Shown here piece after piece: positions 2,997 to 54,609 of a stretch of DNA of 64,000 nucleotides. Made by a program: the position numbers and the translations under genes. The notes beneath the pieces were generated by a model. It did not search any database and was not told where the DNA came from. It saw only the letters and a program-made list of their open reading frames with translations. Source of the DNA: Candidatus Nanopelagicales bacterium. GTDB lineage: Bacteria > Actinomycetota > Actinomycetes > S36-B12 > JBBQYX01. The stretch covers positions 15,437 to 79,436 of the forward strand of contig JBBQYX010000006.1 of NCBI GenBank assembly GCA_038208295.1, read 5' to 3'. Position 1 is the stretch's first letter. Every line of letters begins with the position of its first letter.

Positions 2997-3017
2997 GCCC
3001 GTACAGGCACCCCGGAG

Positions 3018-4454
3018 TCAGCCCAGAGCCTCGTTCAAGGACCCGGACCGGAATCCCTGCGGGTCAATCTCGACCCGGGCGAAGCCGGCCGCCCGAACGC
3101 TGTCAGTCGCGGCCGGCAGCGCCGCGACGGCGGCCACTACCGTCGCGTCGACCTCGATGCGGGCGAGGTCGCCGAGGTCGCGGACCCGCAGGTTGACGAC
3201 GGGGATGTCGGCCTGGTGCATGGCGGCCCGCAATGCCGCTTCGGCACGGTCGACACGGGCCAGCACCGCCGGGGTGATGTGCAGCCCGTACGCGATCCGG
3301 CTGGACAGGCAGGCCGCCTGCGGCTTGTCCCAGGTGGGCAGGTCCCAGGCCCGGGACGCGGTCCTGATCTGCGCCTTGGTCAGCCCGGCGTCGGCCAGGG
3401 GCGTCCGGGCGCCCCGTTCGGACGCGGCCTGGATACCGGGTCGGAACTCGGCGAGCAGATCGTCGGCGTTCGTGCCCGTCGCGACGCACGCGACACCCAG
3501 CTCCGCCGCCAGTGGCACCAGCACGTCGAGCAGTTCACTCTTGCAGTGGTAACAGCGGTCCGACCCGTTGGCTCGGTAGCCTTCGCGACCCATTTCGTCG
3601 GTGAACGGCTGCAGATGCCGGACTCCCAGCCCGGCGGCGAAATGCGCGGCCTCGGTCAGTTCACCCTCGGCAAGCGATGCGGACACCGCGGTGGCGGCGA
3701 TGACGCGATCTGGCCCGAGGGCTCGAGCGGCAGCCGCGAGCAGGAAGGCCGAGTCGGCGCCACCACTGAACGCCACCAGCACTGAGCCGTACGCGGTGAG
3801 CCGGTCGGCGAGATCGGCAAGACGCCGGTCGAGCATCCGGTCAGGCATCCGGTCGTGCATCCAGGAGTCCAACCACTCGGGGAAGCCGGCAAGGTCGGGT
3901 AGGACCAGGTCGGCATCGGCGAGTTCGGCGATCGGCGTGGGTCCGGTGGCGACACCGACGGCCACAACGCCCGCTGAGCGCGCCGCCGCGACGTCAGCGT
4001 GGTGATCGCCTATGTAGATCGCCACCCCCTGCTCCCGCAGGGCTGCGGCCTTACCCGCGGCGAACCGTTCCCCGACGACCTCGTCCACCGCCAGACCGAC
4101 CACGTCCAGGACCGCCTGCGCATGTCCGGCCCGCTTGGCAGTGATCACCACCACCCGGGCACCATGCGCGCGGGCCGCCGCTACCGCTTCGGCCGCGTGC
4201 GGCAGCAGCCGGGAGTGGGGAGTGACGTGCTCGGAGTAGTGCGCCCGGTAGGCGGCTAGGGCGTCCGCGTACGGCACCTGCGGCAACCACCGGGGGAAGA
4301 CCTGGTCCAGCGGCAGCCCGACCGTGGCGTGCACGTCGCCCGGGTCCGGCTGGACCCCGTGCGCCGCGCACACGGCTGCGATGGTCGCGACGATCCCGTC
4401 GGCGGAGTCGACCAACGTCATGTCAAGGTCGAAACCGACGACCAAGTCGCTCAT
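3018..4454 (-). CDS. HAD-family phosphatase fused in frame to LarE-type PP-loop ATP-dependent sulfur transferase
   Basis: Last 478 codons of ORF 3018..6104, starting at the ATG at 4454. The N-terminal part has HAD motif I FDLDMTLVDS and GDHHADV. The C-terminal part has the SGGADS PP-loop, CYHC and AACLSSR (LarE-like). There is no stop between the two domains. Internal ATGs at 3860, 3848 and 3836 could also give a stand-alone LarE. Confidence 0.8.
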   Translation of the reverse strand: MSDLVVGFDLDMTLVDSADGIVATIAAVCAAHGVQPDPGDVHATVGLPLDQVFPRWLPQVPYADALAAYRAHYSEHVTPHSRLLPHAAEAVAAARAHGARVVVITAKRAGHAQAVLDVVGLAVDEVVGERFAAGKAAALREQGVAIYIGDHHADVAAARSAGVVAVGVATGPTPIAELADADLVLPDLAGFPEWLDSWMHDRMPDRMLDRRLADLADRLTAYGSVLVAFSGGADSAFLLAAAARALGPDRVIAATAVSASLAEGELTEAAHFAAGLGVRHLQPFTDEMGREGYRANGSDRCYHCKSELLDVLVPLAAELGVACVATGTNADDLLAEFRPGIQAASERGARTPLADAGLTKAQIRTASRAWDLPTWDKPQAACLSSRIAYGLHITPAVLARVDRAEAALRAAMHQADIPVVNLRVRDLGDLARIEVDATVVAAVAALPAATDSVRAAGFARVEIDPQGFRSGSLNEALG

Positions 4455-4521
4455 GCCGGGCAGCGTACGTCGCAGCGCCGCCATCGTGCTGCCTGGCAGC
4501 CGACCGCGTAGCGTTACCCGG

Positions 4522-6915
4522 ATGGCCATGCAGCGACCCCACCGGGGGCAGGGGGCGACCCCCGCGGTACCGGCCATACCGCCGCGCAGCCTGGCCGAAG
4601 ACCTGCGTACCCGCTCTGCCGATGCGCTCCGGGAGTTGCTGCAGGCCCGCCCCGACCTACTGCACCCCATGCCCCCGGACCTGGGCCAGCTGGCGGCTCG
4701 GGCCGCTACCGGGGCTTCTACGGCCCGAGCGATGGACGCGCTGGACTCATTGGCGCTGCAGGTCCTGGAGGTTTTGGCCGCGGCCGCCGGGCCGGTCAGC
4801 ATCGCAGCGGTACTCAGCGCGTTCGGTGCGGACGAGGAGGCCGGCAATGGTGATCCCGTTCCGCCTGCATCCGACCTCCCCGAGGCAATCACTGAGCGAG
4901 TGGACCTGCTGCGCCGATTGGCGTTGGCGTGGGGACCGACCCAGGCGATGCAGGCGGTCCGGCCCGTACGCGAGATGTTTGGGCCGTTCCCCTGCGGCCT
5001 GGCACCCAGCACGCTGACAACCCATCGCGTCGCCCGGTACGTGGACGATCCGGAGCAGTTGGCACAGGTGCTCGCCGACGCGCCGGAGCAGGCGTTGGGA
5101 GCCCTGGACCGCCTCGCCTGGGGGCCACCTGGTGGCCAGGTCAGCGACGCCCGCCGCCTCGTGAGCCGCAGCAGCGCAGCGACTGCGGTGGAGTGGCTGC
5201 TCGCTCGAGACCTGCTGATTCCGACCGACGACACGACAGTGGTCATCCCCCGCGTGGTGGCGCTGGCCCGGCGGGCAGGCCGCTGGATCACCGCTCCCGC
5301 CTGGCCGGGCCCGGCTGCCGGTCGTCCCCCCAGTCTGCCCAGCACCCGGGTCGAGGCCACCGCGGGAGCGGCGGCGGCTGACTTCGTCCGAGCGGTCACG
5401 GACCTGCTGGAGGCCTGGTCGGTGCAGCCGCCCGCCGTCCTGCGCGGTGGCGGGGTGTCGCTGCGTGACCTGTCCGCCGCGGCCCGACTGGTCGATGCCG
5501 ACGAGCCGACCGCGGCGGCCGTGATCGAGACCGCCCACGCCGCTGGTCTGCTGGTCGGGGACGGGGAGGTGGCCGAGACCTGGCTGCCCAGCCTGGCGTA
5601 CGACGCCTGGTTGACCCGGCCCGTGGCGGAGCAGTGGGCCACACTCGCGCTGGCCTGGATGCAGACATCCCGGCTGCCCGGCCTGGCCGGGACCCGGGAC
5701 GAGCGCGGCTCCCGGCGCAACGCCTTGGCGCCCGAATCGGTTGCCGGGACGGCCGCCGCGGTGCGCGCCGAGGTCCTGGCGGTGCTGGCCGACCTACCCC
5801 CGGGGCTGCCGGGCGATCCGGACGGGGTACGCGCCGCGCTGGGCTGGCGACGCCCGAGGCTCGGCGGTCCCGCCCGAGACCAGCAGGGGGCCTGGGTGCT
5901 GGCCGAGGCGGAGATCCTCGGTGTGACCGCTGCCGGTGCCTTGTCCGCGCCGGGCCGGGCTCTGGTCGCAGTTGGCCCCCCGCAGCGTTCCGCCATCGCC
6001 GCTGCCCTCGCGCCGCACCTCCCCACGCCGCTGGACCACGTCCTGCTGCAGGCGGACCTCACCGCGGTGGCCCCCGGTCCGCTGGAACCTGCCCTAGCTC
6101 GCACACTGACGCTGCTGGCCGATGTGGAGTCGACCGGCGGGGCGACGGTGCTGCGGTTCAGCGAGTCTTCGCTGCGCCGAGGGCTGGACGCCGGCCAAAC
6201 CGCCGAGCAGATTCTCGCTCTGCTCGAACGGCATTCCCGTACGCCGGTCCCTCAGCCACTGCGCTACCTGGTCAGCGATGTCGCCCGCCGCCATGGCGGC
6301 ATCCGGGTCGGCCTCGCCGGTTCCTATATTCGCAGCGACGACGAGCCGGCGCTGCGCGAACTGCTCGTCGACCGCCGCCTGCGCGGCCTGGGCCTGATCC
6401 GGCTGGCCCCGACCGTCCTCGCCGCGACCGCGAGCACCGATGAGGTGCTGCGGGCACTGCGGACGGCCGGGCGGGCGCCGGTCGCGGAGGCTCCCGACGG
6501 CACCGTCCTGATCCGCCGCCCGGACTCCCGCCGGGCGGCGACGCGGCCGAGTGCGCCACTGCTGGCTGGCCCGTTCCCGGTGCCGCCGGACCGGGTGCTC
6601 GACGCGGCCGTACGGGCATTGCTGGCCGCCGAGCGGGACCGGTCGCCCGGCGAGGGCACCGACGAACCCGGCCCGGGTGCCGCCCTGCCCCGGGGCACGG
6701 CACGGGAGACGATGGTGGCGCTGCGGGCGGCCATCGCCGCGGGTGCCGCCGTTCGCATCGGGTACGCGGACGAGACCGGCGCGGCCGCGGTCCGGCTGGT
6801 GGAGCCACTGGGACTACAGGGCGGCCACCTGACCGCGTATGACCACCGGGCTCAGCGCGTCACCACCTTCGCCGTCTCCCGGGTGACCGGCATCGCGCCG
6901 GCAGGCGGGTCATGA
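4522..6915 (+). CDS. XPB-associated large protein (helicase-associated / Rv0862c-like) with WYL-like C-terminus
   Basis: In-frame ATG at 4522 of ORF 4324..6915. It lies immediately upstream of XPB, like the mycobacterial Rv0862c-Rv0861c pair as I recall it. The C-terminus VRIGYADETG..RLVEP..LTAYDHRAQRVTTFAVSRV resembles a WYL-type barrel. Confidence 0.75.
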   Translation: MAMQRPHRGQGATPAVPAIPPRSLAEDLRTRSADALRELLQARPDLLHPMPPDLGQLAARAATGASTARAMDALDSLALQVLEVLAAAAGPVSIAAVLSAFGADEEAGNGDPVPPASDLPEAITERVDLLRRLALAWGPTQAMQAVRPVREMFGPFPCGLAPSTLTTHRVARYVDDPEQLAQVLADAPEQALGALDRLAWGPPGGQVSDARRLVSRSSAATAVEWLLARDLLIPTDDTTVVIPRVVALARRAGRWITAPAWPGPAAGRPPSLPSTRVEATAGAAAADFVRAVTDLLEAWSVQPPAVLRGGGVSLRDLSAAARLVDADEPTAAAVIETAHAAGLLVGDGEVAETWLPSLAYDAWLTRPVAEQWATLALAWMQTSRLPGLAGTRDERGSRRNALAPESVAGTAAAVRAEVLAVLADLPPGLPGDPDGVRAALGWRRPRLGGPARDQQGAWVLAEAEILGVTAAGALSAPGRALVAVGPPQRSAIAAALAPHLPTPLDHVLLQADLTAVAPGPLEPALARTLTLLADVESTGGATVLRFSESSLRRGLDAGQTAEQILALLERHSRTPVPQPLRYLVSDVARRHGGIRVGLAGSYIRSDDEPALRELLVDRRLRGLGLIRLAPTVLAATASTDEVLRALRTAGRAPVAEAPDGTVLIRRPDSRRAATRPSAPLLAGPFPVPPDRVLDAAVRALLAAERDRSPGEGTDEPGPGAALPRGTARETMVALRAAIAAGAAVRIGYADETGAAAVRLVEPLGLQGGHLTAYDHRAQRVTTFAVSRVTGIAPAGGS

Positions 6916-7003
6916 CATCGCGCCGGCAGGCGGGTCATGAGCTCAGACCGCAGCTCACCCGCCATGGTTCGTCCCAGCACCCGCACCGAGGGACAATGAG
7001 CGG

Positions 7004-33421: not shown

Positions 33422-35875
33422 TCAGCGGAAGAAGCCCCGCCGCTGCTTGCGGGTCTCGCGCTGCGGGGTCGCCGACCGGACGGTGGTCGGGCGACCGGGG
33501 GCCGCTGCACGCGGCTCCTCGGCACCGAAGCCACCGAGACTGGACAGTTCCCGGAGCAGCGCGGCGGTGTCGGTCTGGTCGTCACGGGCCCCGCTGCCGT
33601 CCTGCATCCCGGACAGGCCGGCGCGCTCCTGGGGCTCGGCAACTGCCGCGGTAGGGGACACCTCGGGGGCCGGCTGCTCGGGCGCCGCCGGGGCGTCCAA
33701 CGACAGTTCGTGCAACAGCGCGGCAACCTGGGCGGCTGATACGGGACTCGGCACCACCGCGTGCTGGAATCCGTCACCGGGGGAGGACGGCTGGGGCGGC
33801 GCGCCATGCGCTGCGTCGATGAGGACGGGACGTCCGGGTCCGGTCGGCACCGCCGCGGGAGCGACCGCAGGGGCAGCCGATCCACTGGGAACGTTGGCTG
33901 CTGAGTCGTTCACGGCACGGTCCGCTGCCGGCTGGATCCCGACCTGGAACTCTTCGCTCGCAGCCATGTCCGTCAACTGCTCAGCAGCTGTCTCGACAGT
34001 GCCGTCGACTGCAGTGCCGTCGACTGCAGTGCCGTCGGCAGGGGCGTCAGCTGCTGCCGCGGTCGGCCCGCGCTCGTGGGCGCCGTGCCGGACATCGGCG
34101 GGGTCGCAGAAGAGCTGATCGGCGGGTGCCGGGACATCCGCCGTGCTTGGCGTCTGGTCCAGCTGGGTCGCCACGAGCGCTGTCGCGCCCAGGTCAGCCT
34201 CGTCCAGCGCCGTGTTGTCCAGTCCTGTCTCGCCCGGTGCTGTCGCGTCCAGCTCAGCCTCGTCCAGCGCCGTGTTGTCCAGTGCTGTCTCGCCCGGTGC
34301 TGTCGCGTCCACCTCGGTCTCGACGCACGCCGTACCGACCGGTGCTGTCGCGTCCAGCTCGGTCTCGACGCTCGCCGTCTCGTCCAGCGTCTCGATTGGC
34401 CCGGTGTCGGCGCGCCCCGTCTCGTCGTTCCCGGCCGCTTCGACAAACGGTGTCTGGTCGAGGTGCTCGGCGACGTGCTGATCGTCCTCGTTCTCATCGG
34501 TCGAGACCTGCTGGGGAGCACTCTCCTCGACCGGAATCTGTTGTGCCGCAGCTTCTTCGACCGAGGACTGCAGTGCCGCACTCCCATCGGCCGGGAACGC
34601 CGGCGCCACGCTCTCGTCGGCCAGGGCCTGCTGCGCCACGCTCTCGTCGACCGAGAGTGGCTGGGCCGCAGTCTCGTCGGCGGCGTTCTCGTCGACCGGA
34701 ATCTCGGCGACCGGAACTTCGTCGGCGGCGTTCTCGTCGGACGCCAGCTCCGCCGACTCGGCGTCCCCCGAAGCCGTGCCATCGGAGGCCGCAATGTCGG
34801 AGGCCGCAGTGTCGCAGGCCGCATCGCGGGCGGTGAAGTCGAACGCATCCGCGTGCGCGGCCGGGTCACCGTTGGTTGCCCGCTCGCGATCGGACGCGTC
34901 CGTACCGATTGCGTTCACACTGCCCACGGCCGGCGCGGCCGACTCGCCGAACAGGCCGCCGAGGGCGGCTAGCGCCCAGGCGGCGTCGTCCACGACGTCT
35001 CGGTCGGGCCACGCCGGCTCCGTCATCGGCGCCGCGTCGCCATCCTCCGGCCGCAGGCACAGGACGTCCGCCAGCGCGGAATCGGAGAAGTCGGTGTCCC
35101 CGTCGTTCCAGTAGTCCCCGTCGACGTCGTCGTCCAACTCCACCAAGCCGGCATCGAGCAGCCCGCGGACCACCTCGGCGGCCTCGAAAATGGTGAAGCC
35201 ACAGTCGTAGGCCAGGTCCGTGACGGTGCGGCCACCGTCGACCTTGCATAGCAGCGACCAGTCCCCAGGCCCGAGCACCACGTCGGCCCCCGGCACCGAA
35301 CTGGTCGACAGCACCGGGACGCTGGAGGCGCCACCCAACTCGGCGAGCAGCAACTCCCAGCTGTCCCGCCGCTCCCGCGCCGCGGTGATCAACTGTCGGG
35401 CGTCTAGATGGATCTCTCGCGCGATGGTGCTGTCGAGGATCTCACCCGGCTCGCCCCCTTCGTCGAACCAGGCATCGGCAGCGGTCTGCCGGACCAGTTC
35501 GGCGACCTGGTCCACGATCTCCTCGGTCAGGTATTCCAGGACGACCGCGCGGTCCACATACCCCTCGGTGCTGAGCAGGTCCACCAAAGCTGGGCTCGGG
35601 CGTCGGGCGGCCCGCTCATCCAGTGCCGACTCCAGCGCCTGCGGGCTCAGGACCCCCGCGGAGACCATGCGCAGGCCGAGGTCGGGGCGTCGACCGGGGA
35701 CATCAGCGGCGACCACCGCGCCGATCCGCAACCAGACCCGCGCCTGTCCAGCGGGGGTGGCCGGCACCACGATGGCGCCGGTGGCCTCGTCATGAGACAG
35801 CCGGTGCAGCAGTGCCTCGAAGGCAGGTTCGACCGAGGCCTTCAGGCCGGTGCGTACATAACCATCCACGGTCAT
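33422..35875 (-). CDS. DUF4388-like N-terminal domains followed by a ~450-aa acidic tandem-repeat region and a basic C-terminus
   Basis: ATG at 35875 (MTVDGYV) in ORF 33422..36022. The N-terminal 270 aa are globular. The rest is D/E/A/T-rich with 20-aa and 5-aa repeats. The tail is LLRELSSLGG...RKQRRGFFR. Confidence 0.7.
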   Translation of the reverse strand: MTVDGYVRTGLKASVEPAFEALLHRLSHDEATGAIVVPATPAGQARVWLRIGAVVAADVPGRRPDLGLRMVSAGVLSPQALESALDERAARRPSPALVDLLSTEGYVDRAVVLEYLTEEIVDQVAELVRQTAADAWFDEGGEPGEILDSTIAREIHLDARQLITAARERRDSWELLLAELGGASSVPVLSTSSVPGADVVLGPGDWSLLCKVDGGRTVTDLAYDCGFTIFEAAEVVRGLLDAGLVELDDDVDGDYWNDGDTDFSDSALADVLCLRPEDGDAAPMTEPAWPDRDVVDDAAWALAALGGLFGESAAPAVGSVNAIGTDASDRERATNGDPAAHADAFDFTARDAACDTAASDIAASDGTASGDAESAELASDENAADEVPVAEIPVDENAADETAAQPLSVDESVAQQALADESVAPAFPADGSAALQSSVEEAAAQQIPVEESAPQQVSTDENEDDQHVAEHLDQTPFVEAAGNDETGRADTGPIETLDETASVETELDATAPVGTACVETEVDATAPGETALDNTALDEAELDATAPGETGLDNTALDEADLGATALVATQLDQTPSTADVPAPADQLFCDPADVRHGAHERGPTAAAADAPADGTAVDGTAVDGTVETAAEQLTDMAASEEFQVGIQPAADRAVNDSAANVPSGSAAPAVAPAAVPTGPGRPVLIDAAHGAPPQPSSPGDGFQHAVVPSPVSAAQVAALLHELSLDAPAAPEQPAPEVSPTAAVAEPQERAGLSGMQDGSGARDDQTDTAALLRELSSLGGFGAEEPRAAAPGRPTTVRSATPQRETRKQRRGFFR
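33998..34042. repeat. 15-nt tandem repeat x3 (agtgccgtcgactgc) inside the acidic protein gene
   Basis: Direct reading of the sequence. Encodes (DGTAV)n on the minus strand. Confidence 0.9.
34181..34385. repeat. 60-nt tandem repeat (~3.4 copies) inside the acidic protein gene
   Basis: 34181-34240 and 34241-34300 are near identical, followed by 45-nt and partial copies. Encodes ATAPGETxLDNTALDEAxL-type 20-aa repeats. Confidence 0.9.
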
Positions 35876-36042
35876 GAGCACCTCCTTCGTGCTGCGGGCG
35901 AGCAGTGGTCCGGCCGGCCTGCGCCGGGCGTCGTCGACTGCCACGGTGTGCAGGCACCGTGGCAACAGCTGGGTCGTCGTGCCCGTGCATCGACGCCACC
36001 GGCGCGCTGTGTTGAACTTCACTACGCCGAAAGGGTGAGAGC

Positions 36043-37870: not shown

Positions 37871-38335
37871 ATGGCTCGGATCGACGTAGGAGCGGTAGGT
37901 GCATACATCCGCGAACAGCGGGATGTGGCGCAGATGTCGCTGCGGCAACTGGCCCGCACCGCCGAAGTCTCCAACCCGTATCTGAGCCAGGTAGAACGCG
38001 GACTGCGCCACCCAAGCGCAGAGATCCTTGCCAGGATCGCCACCGCGCTGCGGATCTCGGCCGAAACACTCTATGTCCGGGCCGGAATCCTGGAGGAACG
38101 CCTCGGTGACGCCGACGTCACCAACGCGATAGCGGCGGACGCCACGCTTAGCGAGCGGCAGCGCAAGGTAGTCCTGGAGATCTACGCCGCGTTCCAGGCG
38201 GAGAACGCCGCAACCGCGCCGTCGGGGGACAGACCTCGACCAGCGCCGACGGCGACCGCCGCGGCCGAGCAACCAGCCGGTGACTCGGCAACCTCGACCA
38301 ACCCAGACCCAGCACCCCGAAAGGTCGCATCATGA
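37871..38335 (+). CDS. XRE-family helix-turn-helix transcriptional regulator
   Basis: ATG at 37871. MSLRQLARTAEVSNPYLSQVERGLRHPS is a classic Cro/C1 HTH. Confidence 0.85.
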   Translation: MARIDVGAVGAYIREQRDVAQMSLRQLARTAEVSNPYLSQVERGLRHPSAEILARIATALRISAETLYVRAGILEERLGDADVTNAIAADATLSERQRKVVLEIYAAFQAENAATAPSGDRPRPAPTATAAAEQPAGDSATSTNPDPAPRKVAS

Positions 38336-39021
38336 CAACCCCCACTCCTGAGCCCACGGTGACTCCGGCCACGGCAGCGCCGAAGGCCCGCAAACCGCGT
38401 ACGAATAGCGCCAAGGCCGCCCCGAAGGCGACCGCGTCCACAACCACATCCGCGCCCAAGGCAGCACCGAAGAGCGAGCCGAAGTCCGCTCCCCAGGCGA
38501 AGACCTTGCGCGACCGACTGCCCAAGAGCCTCGGCGACCTGTCCGCGCTCGACCCTCGTACGTTCGAGCTGCCCAAGGTCACCCTGCCCAAGCTGGAGAT
38601 GCCGAACTTCGACCTGCCCAAGGTCGACATGCCGAAGGTGGATCTGCCCACCGTGGACCTGTCCACGCTGGAGCTGCCGAGCCTGGAGGAGATGCGGGCG
38701 TCCCTGGTGAAGATGCTCGACGAGATCCAAGAGGCGGTCATGGACGCCCCCACCCGGGTCGAGGACCTGCGTAAGTGGATGTCCACCGAAACGGACGACC
38801 TGCGGCACTGGATGACCACCGAGGTCGAGGCGTTCCGCGACGACCCGACCGAGGTCGCCAAGGACCTGCGCACGTGGGTCAGCACCGAAGCCGACGACCT
38901 GCGGCACTGGATGACCACCGAGGTCGAGGCGTTCCGCGAGGACCCGACCGAGGCCGCCAAGGACTTGCAGGCTCAGGTCACCAAGGCCGTGACCCGCGTC
39001 CGCGAGGCCGTCAGCCGCTGA
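38332..39021 (+). CDS. Repeat-containing protein with Lys/Pro/Ala-rich N-terminus and helical repeats (HbhA-neighbourhood-like)
   Basis: The start overlaps the XRE stop (ATGA). AAPKARKPRTNSAKAAPKA... N-terminus, (D/E)LPK short repeats, and two 33-aa repeats DDLRHWMTTEVEAFR(D/E)DPTE.AKDL. Confidence 0.6.
   Translation: MTTPTPEPTVTPATAAPKARKPRTNSAKAAPKATASTTTSAPKAAPKSEPKSAPQAKTLRDRLPKSLGDLSALDPRTFELPKVTLPKLEMPNFDLPKVDMPKVDLPTVDLSTLELPSLEEMRASLVKMLDEIQEAVMDAPTRVEDLRKWMSTETDDLRHWMTTEVEAFRDDPTEVAKDLRTWVSTEADDLRHWMTTEVEAFREDPTEAAKDLQAQVTKAVTRVREAVSR
38794..38970. repeat. 99-nt tandem duplication within the HbhA-like gene
   Basis: gacgacctgcggcactggatgaccaccgaggtcgaggcgttccgcga occurs at 38794 and again at 38893. 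Confidence 0.9.
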
Positions 39022-49182: not shown

Positions 49183-49276
49183 CATGTCGCGGCGTGGAAC
49201 ACGATCGGCTCCCCGCGGCGCGGCGGCGATGCCCTACCGTCAACGCCGTCCTACCGTCGAAGAAGGTGCGTTCGTC

Positions 49277-50530
49277 GTGACCGTGCGCCTGTCCCGCGTC
49301 CCCAGCATCGCCGTGGAGGCGTTGCGGCTGCTCGTCGTGGCCTTCGGCGCGGGTTTGGGATTCGAAGTGGCGCAGCGGCTCGGAGCCACCCGTAGTGATC
49401 CCGTGCTGGGTTCCTTCGACGGCGTCTGGGTCGGCGTGATCATCGGCGCAGGGCTGGGCTACTCGCTGGGTGGGGTCGTCGCTCGCACGCTGGTCCGCGC
49501 CATCGACTCCGGGGAACGGGCCCTGGATCGGCTCAGCCCGGAACAGGTCGTAGCCGGCAGCTTTGGTGCGCTGCTCGGCGCATTGCTCATCACCGTCGTT
49601 GGCTGGCCGCTGTTCCTGCTCGGTAGGCCGATCCTGGTCCTGCCGGTGTTCCTGCTCCTCGTACTCACCGGGGCCATGTTTGGCTTCCGGGTCGGCCGCG
49701 CCCGCCGCAGCGCGGTGCTGACGATGGCCGGACCTCGTACGGGCATCGCCGCGCCGCCGAGAGCCACCGCCTCGCTGCCTCGACTGCTGGACACCTCCGT
49801 GGCGATCGACGGTCGACTGCTGGACGTCGTCCGAGCCGGCTTCGTCCACGGCAGGCTGCTGATCTGCACCCCGGTGCTCGGCGAACTGCAGGCCTTGGCC
49901 GATTCCGCCGATGATCTGCGCCGGGCGCGCGGGCGCCGCGGCCTGGACGTCCTACAAGCCCTGGAGCGCGAACAGGGCGTGGAGCTGGAGCCCATCGGCG
50001 ACGAGGCCCCCGGCGTCTCCGACGTCGACGCCAAACTCATCCGCATCGCCTTGGACCGGCAGGCCGGCCTGCTGACCTTCGACACGAACCTGGCCAAGGT
50101 CGCCGCCCTGGCAGGGGCCCGGGTGTTGAACATGCACGCGCTGGCGCTAGCCCTGCGCCCCCCGGTCGTGGTCGGCGACGAGGTCGATGTCGTCCTGGCC
50201 AAGCCCGGCAAGGAGCCAGGACAGGCGGTCGGCTACCTCGACGACGGCACGATGGTCGTTGTAGAGGCGGCCCGGCCCCGGGTCGGCCAGGATGCCCGAG
50301 TGATCGTCACCAGTGTGCTCACCACGGCGAACGGCCGGATGGTGTTCGCCCGACTGGCGGGCCGGGGCGATGTGACCGGCGGCCTCGTCGGCAAGGACCC
50401 CGGCAAGGACCCTGGCAAGGACCCTGGCAAGGACCCTGGCGATGCCACCACCGCCGGGTCCGACCCGGCTCGGCCGACCGCACACCCGCTGCACGATCCG
50501 GTCGAATCCGCCCGGGCGCGGCAGCGATGA
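49277..50530 (+). CDS. PIN/TRAM-domain membrane protein (YacL-like)
   Basis: GTG at 49277. Four N-terminal TM helices. PIN region LLDTSVAIDGRL...ELQALADS. TRAM region GQAVGYLDDGTMVVVE. C-terminal (GKDP)4 repeat. Confidence 0.8.
   Translation: MTVRLSRVPSIAVEALRLLVVAFGAGLGFEVAQRLGATRSDPVLGSFDGVWVGVIIGAGLGYSLGGVVARTLVRAIDSGERALDRLSPEQVVAGSFGALLGALLITVVGWPLFLLGRPILVLPVFLLLVLTGAMFGFRVGRARRSAVLTMAGPRTGIAAPPRATASLPRLLDTSVAIDGRLLDVVRAGFVHGRLLICTPVLGELQALADSADDLRRARGRRGLDVLQALEREQGVELEPIGDEAPGVSDVDAKLIRIALDRQAGLLTFDTNLAKVAALAGARVLNMHALALALRPPVVVGDEVDVVLAKPGKEPGQAVGYLDDGTMVVVEAARPRVGQDARVIVTSVLTTANGRMVFARLAGRGDVTGGLVGKDPGKDPGKDPGKDPGDATTAGSDPARPTAHPLHDPVESARARQR
50390..50437. repeat. 12-nt tandem repeat x4 (ggcaaggaccc[ct]) encoding (GKDP)4
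   Basis: Direct reading of the sequence. Confidence 0.9.
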
Positions 50531-51249
50531 GCGGCGCCGAGACGACCGGCCGGACCGCTGCCGTCGTCCCCGCGGCCGGTCGCGGGGAACGGCTGGGTCC
50601 TGGCGCCCCCAAGGCGCTGCGTGAGCTCGGCGGGCTGCCGATGCTGGTGCACGCCGTACGCGCGCTGGCCGCCGCGCGCAGCGTCGCCTTGGTCGTGGTT
50701 GCTGCCCCGGCCGAGGAGGTCGATGCCGTCCGTGACCTGCTGGCCGACCATGTCCTGGACGCCGAGTTGCGCGTCGTGCCCGGCGGACCTACCCGAGCAC
50801 GGTCCGTGGCCGCTGCCCTGGCCGCGCTGCCGCCCGACGTCGACGTCGTCCTGGTGCACGACGCCGCCCGGCCGCTGGCGCCGGTCGGCCTGATCGACGA
50901 CGTGACGGCCGCGGTACGGCGCGGCGCGGATGCGGTCGTCCCGGTGCTGCCGGTCGTTGACACCATCAAGCAGGTCGACGACGCGGGCACCGTCGTACGG
51001 ACCGTGGACCGTACGACGCTGCGCGCCGTGCAGACCCCGCAGGGGTTCCGACGGGCAACACTGGTCGCCGCGCAGCAGGCAGCGCCCGACGACGAGATCA
51101 CCGACGATGCCGGACTCGTGGAGCGGGCGGGCCATCGCGTGGTCACCGTGGCCGGTCACGAGGAAGCGTTCAAGGTGACCCGGCCATTGGATCTCGTGCT
51201 GGCCGAAGCGGTCCTCGCGCGACGACGGGCCGCCGGTGTCCTGGGCTGA
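50527..51249 (+). CDS. ispD: 2-C-methyl-D-erythritol 4-phosphate cytidylyltransferase
   Basis: [29 protein letters not shown]. Confidence 0.92.
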
Positions 51250-51733
51250 CGGCGTCGCGGTCCCCCGGGTCGGGATCGGGGTGGACGTCCACCCGTACGA
51301 CGCGGACCGACCGCTATGGCTCGCCGGCCTACTCTGGCCCGGTGAGGTCGGCCTGGCCGGGCACTCCGACGCCGACGTCGCGGCCCATGCGGTCTGCGAC
51401 GCGCTGCTGTCCGCCGCCGGTCTTGGGGACCTGGGGGTCGTCTTCGGCACGTCCGACCCACGGTGGGCCGGCGCCAGTGGGGCCGCACTGCTCGCCGAGA
51501 CGGCCCGCCTGGTCCGAGCAGCCGGCTACGAGATCGGCAACGCCAGCGTTCAGGTGATCGGCAACCGGCCGCGGCTGGGCGCCCGCCGCACCGAGGCCGC
51601 GGCCACCCTGTCCGCCGCCTGCGGCGCGGACGTTCACGTCAGCGCCACCACGACGGACGGGCTGGGGCTCACCGGCCGGGGCGAGGGCGTAGCCGCCATC
51701 GCGACGGCTCTGGTCATGGGCCCGCGGCAGTGA
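51236..51733 (+). CDS. ispF: 2-C-methyl-D-erythritol 2,4-cyclodiphosphate synthase
   Basis: [24 protein letters not shown], and the TTTDGLG-type C-terminus. The GTG at 51236 overlaps ispD. Confidence 0.92.
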
Positions 51734-51880
51734 TCATCGGCCTACGGCAGCGACCCCGGGCCTACGGAGGTGATCATGGGCCTGCGGCAGCGACCCCGGG
51801 CCTACGGCAGCGACCCCGGGCCTACGGAGGTGATCATGGGCCTGCGGCGGTGACCTTGTAACCTGCGGCGGTGAGCCTGC
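51721..51880. repeat. 20-nt tandem repeat, ~8 units (two 60-nt super-units), spanning the ispF stop to the cysS start
   Basis: Units cct[ag]cggcagcgaccccggg and cctacggaggtgatcatggg alternate at exact 20-nt phase from 51721 to 51880. Confidence 0.9.
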
Positions 51881-53313
51881 GCCTGTACGACACCGCCACG
51901 CGGACCGTCCGCGACTTCGTCCCCCTGCAACCGGGCCGGGTGTCGATCTACCTGTGTGGCGCAACCGTGCAGGCGCCCCCGCATATCGGGCACATCCGGT
52001 CGGGGCTCAACTTCGATGTCGCTCAGCGGTGGCTGGCGTACCGCGGCTACGAGGTGACGTTCATCCGCAACGTCACCGATATCGACGACAAGATCATCGC
52101 CAGGGCGGCGGACGAGGGTGTCCCGTACTGGCTGATCGCGATGCGCAACGAGCGGGCCTTCACTGCCGCCTACGACGTGCTGGGGTGCCTGCCGCCGGCC
52201 TATGAGCCACGCGCCACCGGGCACGTGCCCGAGATGATCTCGCTGATGCACCGGCTGATCGACGACGGCCACGCCTACGCCGCGGGGGGGGACGTCTACT
52301 TCGACGTGCGTGCCTGGCCATCGTACGGCGCGCTGTCCGGGCAGCGGATCGACGAGATGCTCCCCGCCGCTGATTCCGACCTGCCCGGCAAGCGGGACCC
52401 CCGCGATTTCGCGCTGTGGAAGGCGTCCCGCCCCGGCGAGCCTTCCTGGGACACCCCTTGGGGGCCCGGGCGTCCGGGTTGGCACCTGGAGTGCTCAGCG
52501 ATGGCGCACAAGTACAACGGGCCCGCCTTCGACATTCACGGCGGCGGCCTGGACCTGGTCTTCCCACACCATGAGAACGAGATCGCGCAGTCCCAGGCGG
52601 CTGGCGACGGGTTCGCCCGCTGGTGGCTGCACAACGCCTGGGTGACCACTAGCGGGGAGAAGATGAGCAAGTCGCTGGGGAACTCGTTGCTGGTCAGCGA
52701 GGTCGTCCAGCGGGTACGCCCGGTCCAGTTGCGCTACTACCTCGTCGCGGCCCACTACCGCTCGATGATCGAGTTCTCCGAGGAGGCGCTGGCCGAGGCC
52801 GGGGTGGCGTACGCGCGGATCGAGGGTTTCGTCCGGCATGCGATCGAGCGGGTTGGGGCGCCTCGTACGACGGTGCCCACAGCCAGCCCGCAGGGCTTCG
52901 CGGCGGCAACTCCCACAGCCATCCCGCCCGCCTTCGCCGCCGGGATGGATGACGACCTCGGTGTTCCGCAGGCCCTCGCGGTGCTGCACGACACCATCCG
53001 GGCGGGCAACTCCGCGCTGGCGGCCGGCGATGACACCGCCACCGCGACGGCCCTGGGCGAGGTGCTGGCCATGACCGGCATCCTCGGCCTGGACCCCACC
53101 GATTCGCACTGGTCGCAGGCGTCCGCCGGCGACCAGGCGCTGCGCGGCGCCGTCGACGGCCTGGTGGCCGTGGCCCTGGACCAGCGCACGCAGGCCCGTG
53201 ACCGACGCGACTATGCCGCTGCGGATGCCGTCCGCGACGGCCTGCGCGATGCCGGTATCGCCGTCGAGGACACCCCCGCCGGACCCCGCTGGACCCTCGC
53301 AGGAAGGCCCTGA
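51871..53313 (+). CDS. cysS: Cysteine--tRNA ligase
   Basis: HIGH-type [13 protein letters not shown] (KMSKSLGN), and Zn ligand pattern CGAT...C..H. Confidence 0.95.
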
Positions 53314-53316
53314 ACC

Positions 53317-54609
53317 ATGGCCGGCAACTCCTCCCGACGCGGCGCTACCCGCAATCCCCGAAGCAAGAAGGGCCCAGTCGTCGGTTCCGGCGGGCAACGC
53401 CGCCGTGGCCTGGAGCCCAAGGGCCCGACCCCCAAGGCGGTCGACCGCGACAAGCACTCGGCCGCCAAGCGCGCCCGCACTGCCAGCTCAGGCACCAACT
53501 CCGGCTCCGGCACCAACTCCGGCTCCGGCTCCGGCTGGGGCTCCGGCTCCGGCTGGGGCACCAGCTCCAGCTCCGGGCCTGGCGTCCGCTCCGGACCTGG
53601 CACTCGCTCCGGACCTGGCGCTCGCTCCGGACCTGGCACCGGCTCTGGTCCTGGCGCTCGCTCCGGACTTGGCACCGGCTCTGGACCGCGCACCGGCTCT
53701 GGACCGCGGACCGGCTCCGGCTCGGGTGCGGACGCTCCCAGGCGGAGCGGCGGGCCGTCGGGTAGCGGGCAGTCCGGCGGCGGCCAGCAACGTGGCGCCA
53801 AACGCACCGGCGGTAGTCGCACGGGTGGCAATCGACCTGGCAACAATCGGCCTGGTGGCAACCGCACATCGCGGGAGACGACCGAACTGGTCTTCGGCCG
53901 CAACAGCGTCGTCGAGGCGCTGCGCGCCCACGTACCTGCCACCGCGGTGTTCGTCCAGCAGTATCTCGACAGCGACGACCGCGTCCGCGAGGTACTGCAG
54001 ATCGCCGCCGACCGGCGCATTCCGCTGCTTGAGGCCCCGCGGCCCGAACTGGACCGGATGACCGCCCACGGCGTGCACCAGGGCTTGGCCCTGAAGGTCC
54101 CGGTCTATGACTATGCGGACGCCGCCGAGTTGCTCGACCGGCCCGGGACACCGCTGATCGCGGTGCTCGATGGCATCACCGACCCGCGCAATCTCGGGGC
54201 CGTTGTCAGGTCCGCGGCCGCCTTCGGCTGCCAGGGCGTGGTCGTGCCCGAGCGCCGCGCCGCCGGGATGACCGCCGCAGCCTGGAAGACCTCCGCCGGG
54301 GCGGCGGCGCGGGTGCCGGTCGCCCGTACGGTCAACATCACCCGACTGCTGCGCACCTACCAGCAGGCCGGTGCCACGGTGATCGGCCTGGCCGCCGACG
54401 GCGCCGTGCCGCTGACCGACCTCGACCCCGAGGTGCTCACCGGCCCGGTCATCCTGGTTGTGGGCAGCGAGGGCGCCGGTCTGCATGCGCTGGTCGCCAA
54501 GACCTGTGATCACCTGGTGTCGATCCCGATGACCTCGGACACCGAGTCACTGAACGCCGGAGTCGCGGCCGGCATCGCGCTGTACGCCGTGGCCGCTGCG
54601 CGCCGCTGA
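53317..54609 (+). CDS. rlmB: 23S rRNA (guanosine-2'-O)-methyltransferase RlmB (SpoU/TrmH) with long Gly/Ser/Arg-rich N-terminal extension
   Basis: The C-terminal 240 aa are a SpoU-type core (VFGRNSVVEAL, LDGITDPRNLGAVVRSA, VVGSEGAGL, IPMTSDTESLNAGVAAGIALY). Residues ~57-184 are low-complexity. Confidence 0.88.
   Translation: MAGNSSRRGATRNPRSKKGPVVGSGGQRRRGLEPKGPTPKAVDRDKHSAAKRARTASSGTNSGSGTNSGSGSGWGSGSGWGTSSSSGPGVRSGPGTRSGPGARSGPGTGSGPGARSGLGTGSGPRTGSGPRTGSGSGADAPRRSGGPSGSGQSGGGQQRGAKRTGGSRTGGNRPGNNRPGGNRTSRETTELVFGRNSVVEALRAHVPATAVFVQQYLDSDDRVREVLQIAADRRIPLLEAPRPELDRMTAHGVHQGLALKVPVYDYADAAELLDRPGTPLIAVLDGITDPRNLGAVVRSAAAFGCQGVVVPERRAAGMTAAAWKTSAGAAARVPVARTVNITRLLRTYQQAGATVIGLAADGAVPLTDLDPEVLTGPVILVVGSEGAGLHALVAKTCDHLVSIPMTSDTESLNAGVAAGIALYAVAAARR

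Follow-up and report, generated by a model that had tools for sequence, protein, structure and literature searches.

The 137-nt spacer between ispF and cysS in this actinobacterial genome is occupied by a phased tandem repeat array that is probably a near-neutral minisatellite, born locally at the gene junction and situated beside a leaderless promoter for cysS. The array lies on the forward strand and comprises seven 20-nt units (51714-51853) followed by a terminal unit of 21 nt (51854-51874). Positions refer to the 64-kb window, by which we mean the whole stretch of DNA that was analysed. The array begins where conserved IspF sequence ends and extends exactly to where conserved CysS sequence starts. 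A first-pass annotation of this DNA had listed translational coupling or re-initiation, copy-number-variable expression control, and a neutral minisatellite as possible roles for the repeat, and the last of these is the best-supported reading.

Two periodicities are evident. At a period of 20 nt, TRF reports 7.0 copies over 51714-51853 with 75% matches, and at a period of 60 nt it reports 2.4 copies over 51714-51855 with 90% matches and a score of 235. A 15-nt core, GGCCTRCGGNRGYGA, occurs seven times at a spacing of exactly 20 nt. By chance, 0.72 matches to this core are expected per 64-kb window, and the observed count was reached in none of 100 shuffles. Head-to-tail copies with a period between 10 and 100 nt, present far above chance as judged by the TRF score and the shuffle controls, are as expected of a minisatellite, or VNTR. 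The units contain the short palindromes CCCGGG and TGATCA. The terminal unit is unusual in that only its last 13 nt (CCTGCGGCGGTGA, 51862-51874) resemble the repeat, matching the end of U7 (51841-51853) exactly. These 13 nt include the cysS GTG start codon, and the same unit also carries the cysS −10 box.

The order of the units also records a later event (Table 1). A 50-nt segment recurs without a single change at an offset of 60 nt, and U3 and U6 are identical, which indicates that the last event duplicated three units together and did so recently. The first-pass annotation had described eight consecutive 20-nt units starting at 51721 and organised as two 60-nt super-units. The phased array and the higher-order duplication both stand, but the array starts at 51714, its last unit is 21 nt long with 13 repeat-like nucleotides, and the duplication is best placed at the 50-nt pair given in Table 1, since super-units beginning at 51741 and 51801 are just 54/60 identical.

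Table 1. Features of the repeat array and of the genes that flank it, in window coordinates.
Feature	Position	Strand	Sequence or basis
PIN-TRAM protein	49184-50530	+	Pfam
IspD	50527-51249	+	Pfam
ispF, 2-C-methyl-D-erythritol 2,4-cyclodiphosphate synthase, 165 aa	51236-51733	+	Pfam YgbB, E=4e-54, residues 11-160
Repeat unit U1	start 51714	+	TCATGGGCCCGCGGCAGTGA
43-codon ORF, cysS frame	51730-51861	+	Frame translation
Repeat unit U2	start 51734	+	TCATCGGCCTACGGCAGCGA
Higher-order duplication, copy 1	51739-51788	+	50 nt exact, offset 60 nt
Repeat unit U3	start 51754	+	CCCCGGGCCTACGGAGGTGA
SD-ATG module 1	51766-51853	+	GGAGG 51766-51770, 5-nt gap, ATG 51776, ispF frame, TGA 51851-51853
Repeat unit U4	start 51774	+	TCATGGGCCTGCGGCAGCGA
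Repeat unit U5	start 51794	+	CCCCGGGCCTACGGCAGCGA
Higher-order duplication, copy 2	51799-51848	+	50 nt exact to 51739-51788
Repeat unit U6	start 51814	+	Same sequence as U3
SD-ATG module 2	51826-51853	+	GGAGG 51826-51830, ATG 51836, 5-codon ORF (MGLRR)
Repeat unit U7	start 51834	+	TCATGGGCCTGCGGCGGTGA
Repeat unit U8	start 51854	+	CCTTGTAACCTGCGGCGGTGA, 21 nt
Predicted −10 hexamer TAACCT	51859-51864	+	6 nt (gcggcg) before cysS GTG 51871
cysS, cysteine--tRNA ligase, 480 aa, GTG start	51871-53313	+	Pfam tRNA-synt_1e, E=2e-118, plus DALR_2
SpoU/RlmB-type methylase (rlmB)	53317-54609	+	Pfam

The array is anchored in both of its neighbours. The genes for the PIN-TRAM protein, IspD, IspF, CysS, and the RlmB-type methylase form a tightly packed cluster that is entirely on the forward strand, with junctions of −4, −14, and +3 nt; the exception is the ispF-cysS spacer. 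At the upstream end, the Pfam domain of IspF finishes at residue 160 (..ALV), and the array begins directly after this last conserved residue, with U1 encoding the tail MGPRQ and the TGA stop codon (51731-51733). The same 165-aa IspF product is recorded in NCBI. At the downstream end, the N-terminus of CysS aligns with the start of 96 of 120 homologues, and a start upstream of 51871 is impossible because an in-frame TAA is present at 51859-51861.

Sequence upstream of cysS points to a promoter of its own. The predicted −10 hexamer TAACCT is the sole TANNNT sequence on either strand between 51700 and 51900. We retrieved 42 actinobacterial cysS loci via the CysS protein and aligned their upstream regions, and 37 of the 42 have TANNNT at 6-8 nt before the cysS start, compared with a background of about 1% per NTG in the same loci. 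Two of them (L007 and L016) have the identical hexamer TAACCT at the identical spacing. Some relatives have ispF-cysS spacers of only 11-32 nt, in which the −10 box is located at or directly after the ispF stop codon. Two small-genome relatives (L021 and L023) have no −10 box, and in these the ispF stop and cysS start codons overlap as ATGA (locus positions 3001-3004), which is a different way of arranging this gene pair, by translational coupling.

Experimental precedent for this arrangement exists in mycobacteria. The M. smegmatis cysS gene (MSMEG_6074) has been mapped experimentally as a leaderless, GTG-initiated gene (Shell et al. 2015; PMC4633059 supplement). In M. tuberculosis, a TANNNT −10 motif is located 7-12 bp upstream of 73% of primary transcription start sites (TSSs), promoters have no −35 consensus, and of 14 tRNA-synthetase genes for which a primary TSS is available, seven are leaderless (PMC3898074). 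A TANNNT box with no −35 consensus is the rule for mycobacterial promoters. The locus described here resembles the leaderless actinobacterial cysS genes in its GTG start, in having TANNNT 6-8 nt upstream and no SD, and in the gene order, as ispF is often immediately upstream. It differs in that the region upstream of the promoter consists of repeat units, whereas relatives have a unique spacer or a terminator-like hairpin. Given a TANNNT at this distance, no SD, and the conservation of this signature at orthologous starts, we infer that cysS is transcribed from its own promoter as a leaderless mRNA, with a predicted start at or next to the GTG at 51871. The first-pass annotation correctly noted that cysS has no obvious SD. 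A leaderless mRNA that begins at the GTG would account for this, and the conservation of the signature makes the missing SD an ordinary property of the gene for which the array is not required.

The array shows no sign of acting as a structured or sensory RNA. The first-pass annotation had pointed to the palindromic cccggg cores as a reason to fold the RNA; the predicted fold of 51700-51900 is no more stable than that of shuffled sequences (−95.3 versus −95.1 kcal/mol, z = −0.05). An Rfam search (E<=1) returned nothing relevant in the array and a single spurious miRNA match inside ispF. A structured RNA or riboswitch is rejected on these two results, and the features of known cis-regulatory RNAs (T-box, riboswitch, leader or attenuator) were not found. 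A leader that senses cysteine through attenuation is likewise excluded because neither of the mini-ORFs that begin with a start codon (51730 and 51776) contains a Cys codon. No terminator-like site and no sigma-70 consensus promoter were found at the array, the latter being expected since actinobacterial promoters are without the E. coli −35 box. A coding extension of IspF was also considered, as the frame is open for 40 codons past the TGA, yet the Pfam domain ends before the array begins. Furthermore, 20 nt is not divisible by three, so every unit comes up in all three frames and protein constraint cannot have shaped the repeat.

Most likely, the array arose when slipped-strand mispairing or unequal exchange repeatedly copied a segment of about 20 nt that holds the ispF stop codon. 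The first-pass annotation had noted that the array looks like serial duplication of the ispF terminus, and the anatomy bears this out: U1 is made up of the five final codons of ispF together with its stop codon, with two mismatches in 20 positions to U4 and likewise to U7. The cysS −10-to-start segment has 13 nt in common with this segment, and copying may have run from the ispF tail towards cysS or from the cysS start segment towards ispF. A single more recent event would then have copied three units (60 nt) together. With a stop codon in each copy and a period that is not a multiple of three, IspF always terminates in the first unit. The downstream copies are consequently non-coding, and such duplications should cost nothing and can persist. 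Presumably, cysS is served by its own promoter independently of the array, and the SD-ATG modules and mini-ORFs came about incidentally when the junction sequence was duplicated. The near-neutrality of the array is suggested by the negative outcome of the searches for RNA structure and known motifs.

Other repeats fit a slippage-prone genome and a permissive site. A perfect tandem duplication of 25 nt x2 (CATCGCGCCGGCAGGCGGGTCATGA, 6891-6940) contains the TGA (6913-6915) of an 863-aa ORF (4324-6915), and it is a second case in the window of a gene-end duplication that carries a stop codon. Arrays with TRF scores of at least 100 occur at 1.09 per 10 kb in the window versus 0.37 in 299 kb of relatives' loci, a density about three times higher, and three of these arrays are found within 3.5 kb of the ispF-cysS locus. 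In addition, unrelated small tandem repeats are present in the ispF-cysS spacers of three other actinobacteria, namely 30 nt x2 in L025 (2576-2634), a CCGGG-type repeat of 10 nt x7 in L019 (2794-2872), and 21 nt x2 in L036 (2883-2924). This spacer seems to tolerate repeat formation.

The strongest competing explanation is that the array keeps cysS translationally linked to ispF on read-through ispD-ispF mRNA, although we judge this to be unlikely. Ribosomes that end translation of ispF at 51731-51733 would restart at the GTG at 51730, or ribosomes would load at the SD-ATG modules. After translating across the array they would stop 9 nt (TAA 51859) or 17 nt (TGA 51853) short of the SD-less GTG of cysS, where they would initiate again. 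Several observations are compatible with such a path. The GTG at 51730-51732 overlaps the ispF TGA as GTGA, which is the −4 geometry, and from this codon the cysS frame remains open for 43 codons until a TAA that is formed by the first 3 nt of the −10 box. The ispF frame is open from 51776 to 51853, and no terminator was found between the two genes. The 25-codon mini-ORF at ATG 51776, which encodes MGLRQRPRAYGSDPGPTEVIMGLRR, and the 5-codon ORF at 51836 are both present as the first-pass annotation reported, each with a GGAGG located 5 nt upstream of its ATG in what is a good geometry for a ribosome-binding site. Precedents are provided by the two relatives that couple ispF and cysS directly via ATGA and by MIRUs, whose repeat-borne ORFs deliver ribosomes.

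Distance is the first difficulty for this explanation. Separations of −8 to +10 nt are treated as compatible with termination-reinitiation coupling, and in E. coli and Haloferax reinitiation is down by 40-80% at +14 nt and almost gone by about +22 to +38 nt (PMC10666635). Linkage would therefore be possible via the 9-nt route and weak via the 17-nt route, whose gap (51854-51870) is about the distance at which the tested systems have already lost 40-80%. This tells against the coupling from the mini-ORF onto cysS that the first-pass annotation had proposed. The arrangement resembles ribosome delivery by uORFs through termination-reinitiation (Huber et al. 2019; PMC10666635) in that a start codon lacking an SD is closely preceded by the end of a short ORF whose own SD is good. 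The two differ in that the gaps at this locus are at or beyond the efficient range and that cysS has an independent leaderless route.

Other points also weigh against linkage. From base composition we estimate a chance of roughly 40%, close to a coin-flip, that a 43-codon frame is open at 70% GC. Neither the 25-aa nor the 43-aa peptide matches a Pfam family. The two SD-ATG modules count as a single event, because the 60-nt duplication copied one from the other, and modules of the form GGAGG-N4-9-[AG]TG are common, with 30 examples in the window of which about half open only short non-gene ORFs. With a −10 box 6 nt upstream of its GTG and with this signature conserved in relatives, cysS does not need ribosomes to be fed to it from SD-ATG modules. 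A stronger version of the explanation, in which the array is a maintained ribosome conveyor whose 60-nt (3 x 20) super-unit keeps the frame and whose ribosomes are released 9-17 nt from the cysS GTG, appears improbable. If it were true, cysS would be expressed in two ways, leaderless from its own promoter and coupled on the ispDF read-through mRNA, with copy number setting the balance, and the array would be a functional counterpart, of local origin, to coupling by MIRUs.

It is still less probable that the array regulates the cysS promoter and varies in copy number, acting either through operator- or iteron-like sites two helical turns apart or as an upstream element whose length tunes transcription. 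Counted from the predicted TSS, the array does extend from −13 to about −157 and so covers the −35 position, its 20-bp phasing should make the units face roughly the same side of the helix, and the units contain short palindromes. However, neither a regulator nor a matching motif was found, the unit is confined to one locus in the 64-kb window, and in relatives nothing but terminator-like hairpins is conserved upstream of the −10 box. A −35 consensus is generally missing from actinobacterial promoters, and cysS is a housekeeping gene with no known need for such control. By covering the upstream region of the promoter, the array may nonetheless affect its strength.

An assembly error in a draft or metagenome-derived contig, affecting the repeat itself or the number of its copies, is very improbable: the sequence comes from a single NCBI contig (80,399 nt) with no second record, and short-read assemblers could plausibly mis-resolve 50-nt exact repeats, but the differences between units follow an ordered pattern, both ends of the array are anchored in intact and correctly framed genes, and a chimeric or collapsed join would be unlikely to leave the ispF stop and the promoter and start of cysS intact.

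Searches for further copies give the same picture of a repeat particular to this locus. Neither the full unit nor the degenerate core recovered another copy of the unit in the 64-kb window when mismatches were allowed, and a dispersed repeat family is rejected on this basis; a degenerate pattern of two units gave no matches in a metagenome contig collection. The CysS protein of the window forms a singleton cluster in a search of 5.8 billion proteins, with its next relative 73% identical, and the IspF protein is likewise a singleton cluster. A scan of genome contigs with CysS gave a best match of 71%, and exact-protein look-ups of CysS revealed no other contig. The closest relatives (L081 and L082, 71-73% identical) are uninformative about the array because the gene upstream of their cysS encodes a PNPOx-family protein rather than IspF.

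Among known repeat systems of Actinobacteria, the MIRUs offer the nearest comparison. In two reports (PMC12548453, PMC3184786; for MIRU-VNTR, Supply et al. 1997), these elements are described as units of 40-100 bp at about 40-50 intergenic sites in mycobacterial operons, with an internal ORF that couples to the flanking gene at −4 nt. The array is similar in being arranged head-to-tail within a spacer of co-oriented clustered genes in an actinobacterium, in bearing small ORFs in the direction of the flanking genes, and in having an ORF start that overlaps the upstream stop by 4 nt (GTGA, 51730-51733). The length of its super-unit (60 nt, 2.4 copies) is also divisible by three and is a size found among MIRUs. 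In contrast, the basic unit is 20 nt rather than 40-100 bp, and the array is not interspersed, being restricted to one locus in the 64 kb through which this genome is seen and having no metagenome matches. In addition, its units are copies of local gene ends with no inserted mobile element, there is no −4 coupling on the downstream side, where gaps of 9 and 17 nt separate the ORF ends from the cysS GTG, and the downstream gene is predicted to be leaderless and not coupled. Because the array fails on unit size, dispersal, and downstream coupling, and is built from local gene-end sequence, it is not a MIRU. Rather, it may resemble the raw material from which MIRU-like elements arise.

The array also resembles generic bacterial minisatellites made by slipped-strand mispairing. 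It shares with them the phased tandem copies and a recent higher-order duplication, and it sits where changes in length alter neither protein. Polymorphism is the defining property of VNTRs, and the array is known here from a single genome. As it stands, the array is one more bacterial intergenic minisatellite in a genome rich in them, and it matters little. Its broader relevance is in illustrating that a duplication containing a stop codon is free to expand at the end of a gene, and that SD-start modules and small ORFs can be generated from nothing in the process, thereby providing raw material for new uORFs or MIRU-like coupling elements. If strains of this organism are sampled, the ispF-cysS array would be a ready typing marker.

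The leaderless-promoter signature of cysS is of practical use for start-codon annotation across Actinobacteria. In several database entries for CysS, the annotated protein appears to have been wrongly extended upstream through the −10 box. Eight such proteins carry an N-terminal extension that ends in ..HYPVGV or ..LYPDGV, which is a translated TACCCT −10 box followed by the true GTG, the starts of these leaderless genes having probably been mis-called. We also considered whether over-long CysS annotations might hide similar repeats; this was rejected because the extensions are translated −10 boxes. Leaderless genes appear to be common in the organism, as eight of 49 window ORFs supported by GC3 have TANNNT 5-8 nt upstream of a candidate start.

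Additional features were noted near cysS in other genomes. Six loci from Streptomyces and Kitasatospora have a GC-rich hairpin (gtgccccgcga...tcgcggggcac) that adjoins the −10 box of cysS on its upstream side, about 15-45 nt ahead of the gene (locus positions ~2955-2985), and is probably the terminator of the upstream gene adjoining the leaderless promoter. At the same place, locus L018 has a long inverted repeat.

Repeats are also present within coding regions of the window. Shortly before ispD, the C-terminal tail of the PIN-TRAM protein contains (GKDP)4, encoded by a 12-nt x4.2 repeat (50390-50440, 97% matches). Nested repeats of 6, 18, 36, and 54 nt (53486-53720) encode a Gly/Ser/Pro-rich N-terminal extension of the SpoU/RlmB-type methylase, a protein of 430 aa in the window versus 317 aa in the relative L082. 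More distant from the cluster, 15-nt x2.7 perfect and 60-nt x2.8 arrays (33997-34389) lie inside a minus-strand ORF (33422-36022), and 45-nt and 99-nt repeats (38564-38968) lie inside the ORF at 38332-39021.
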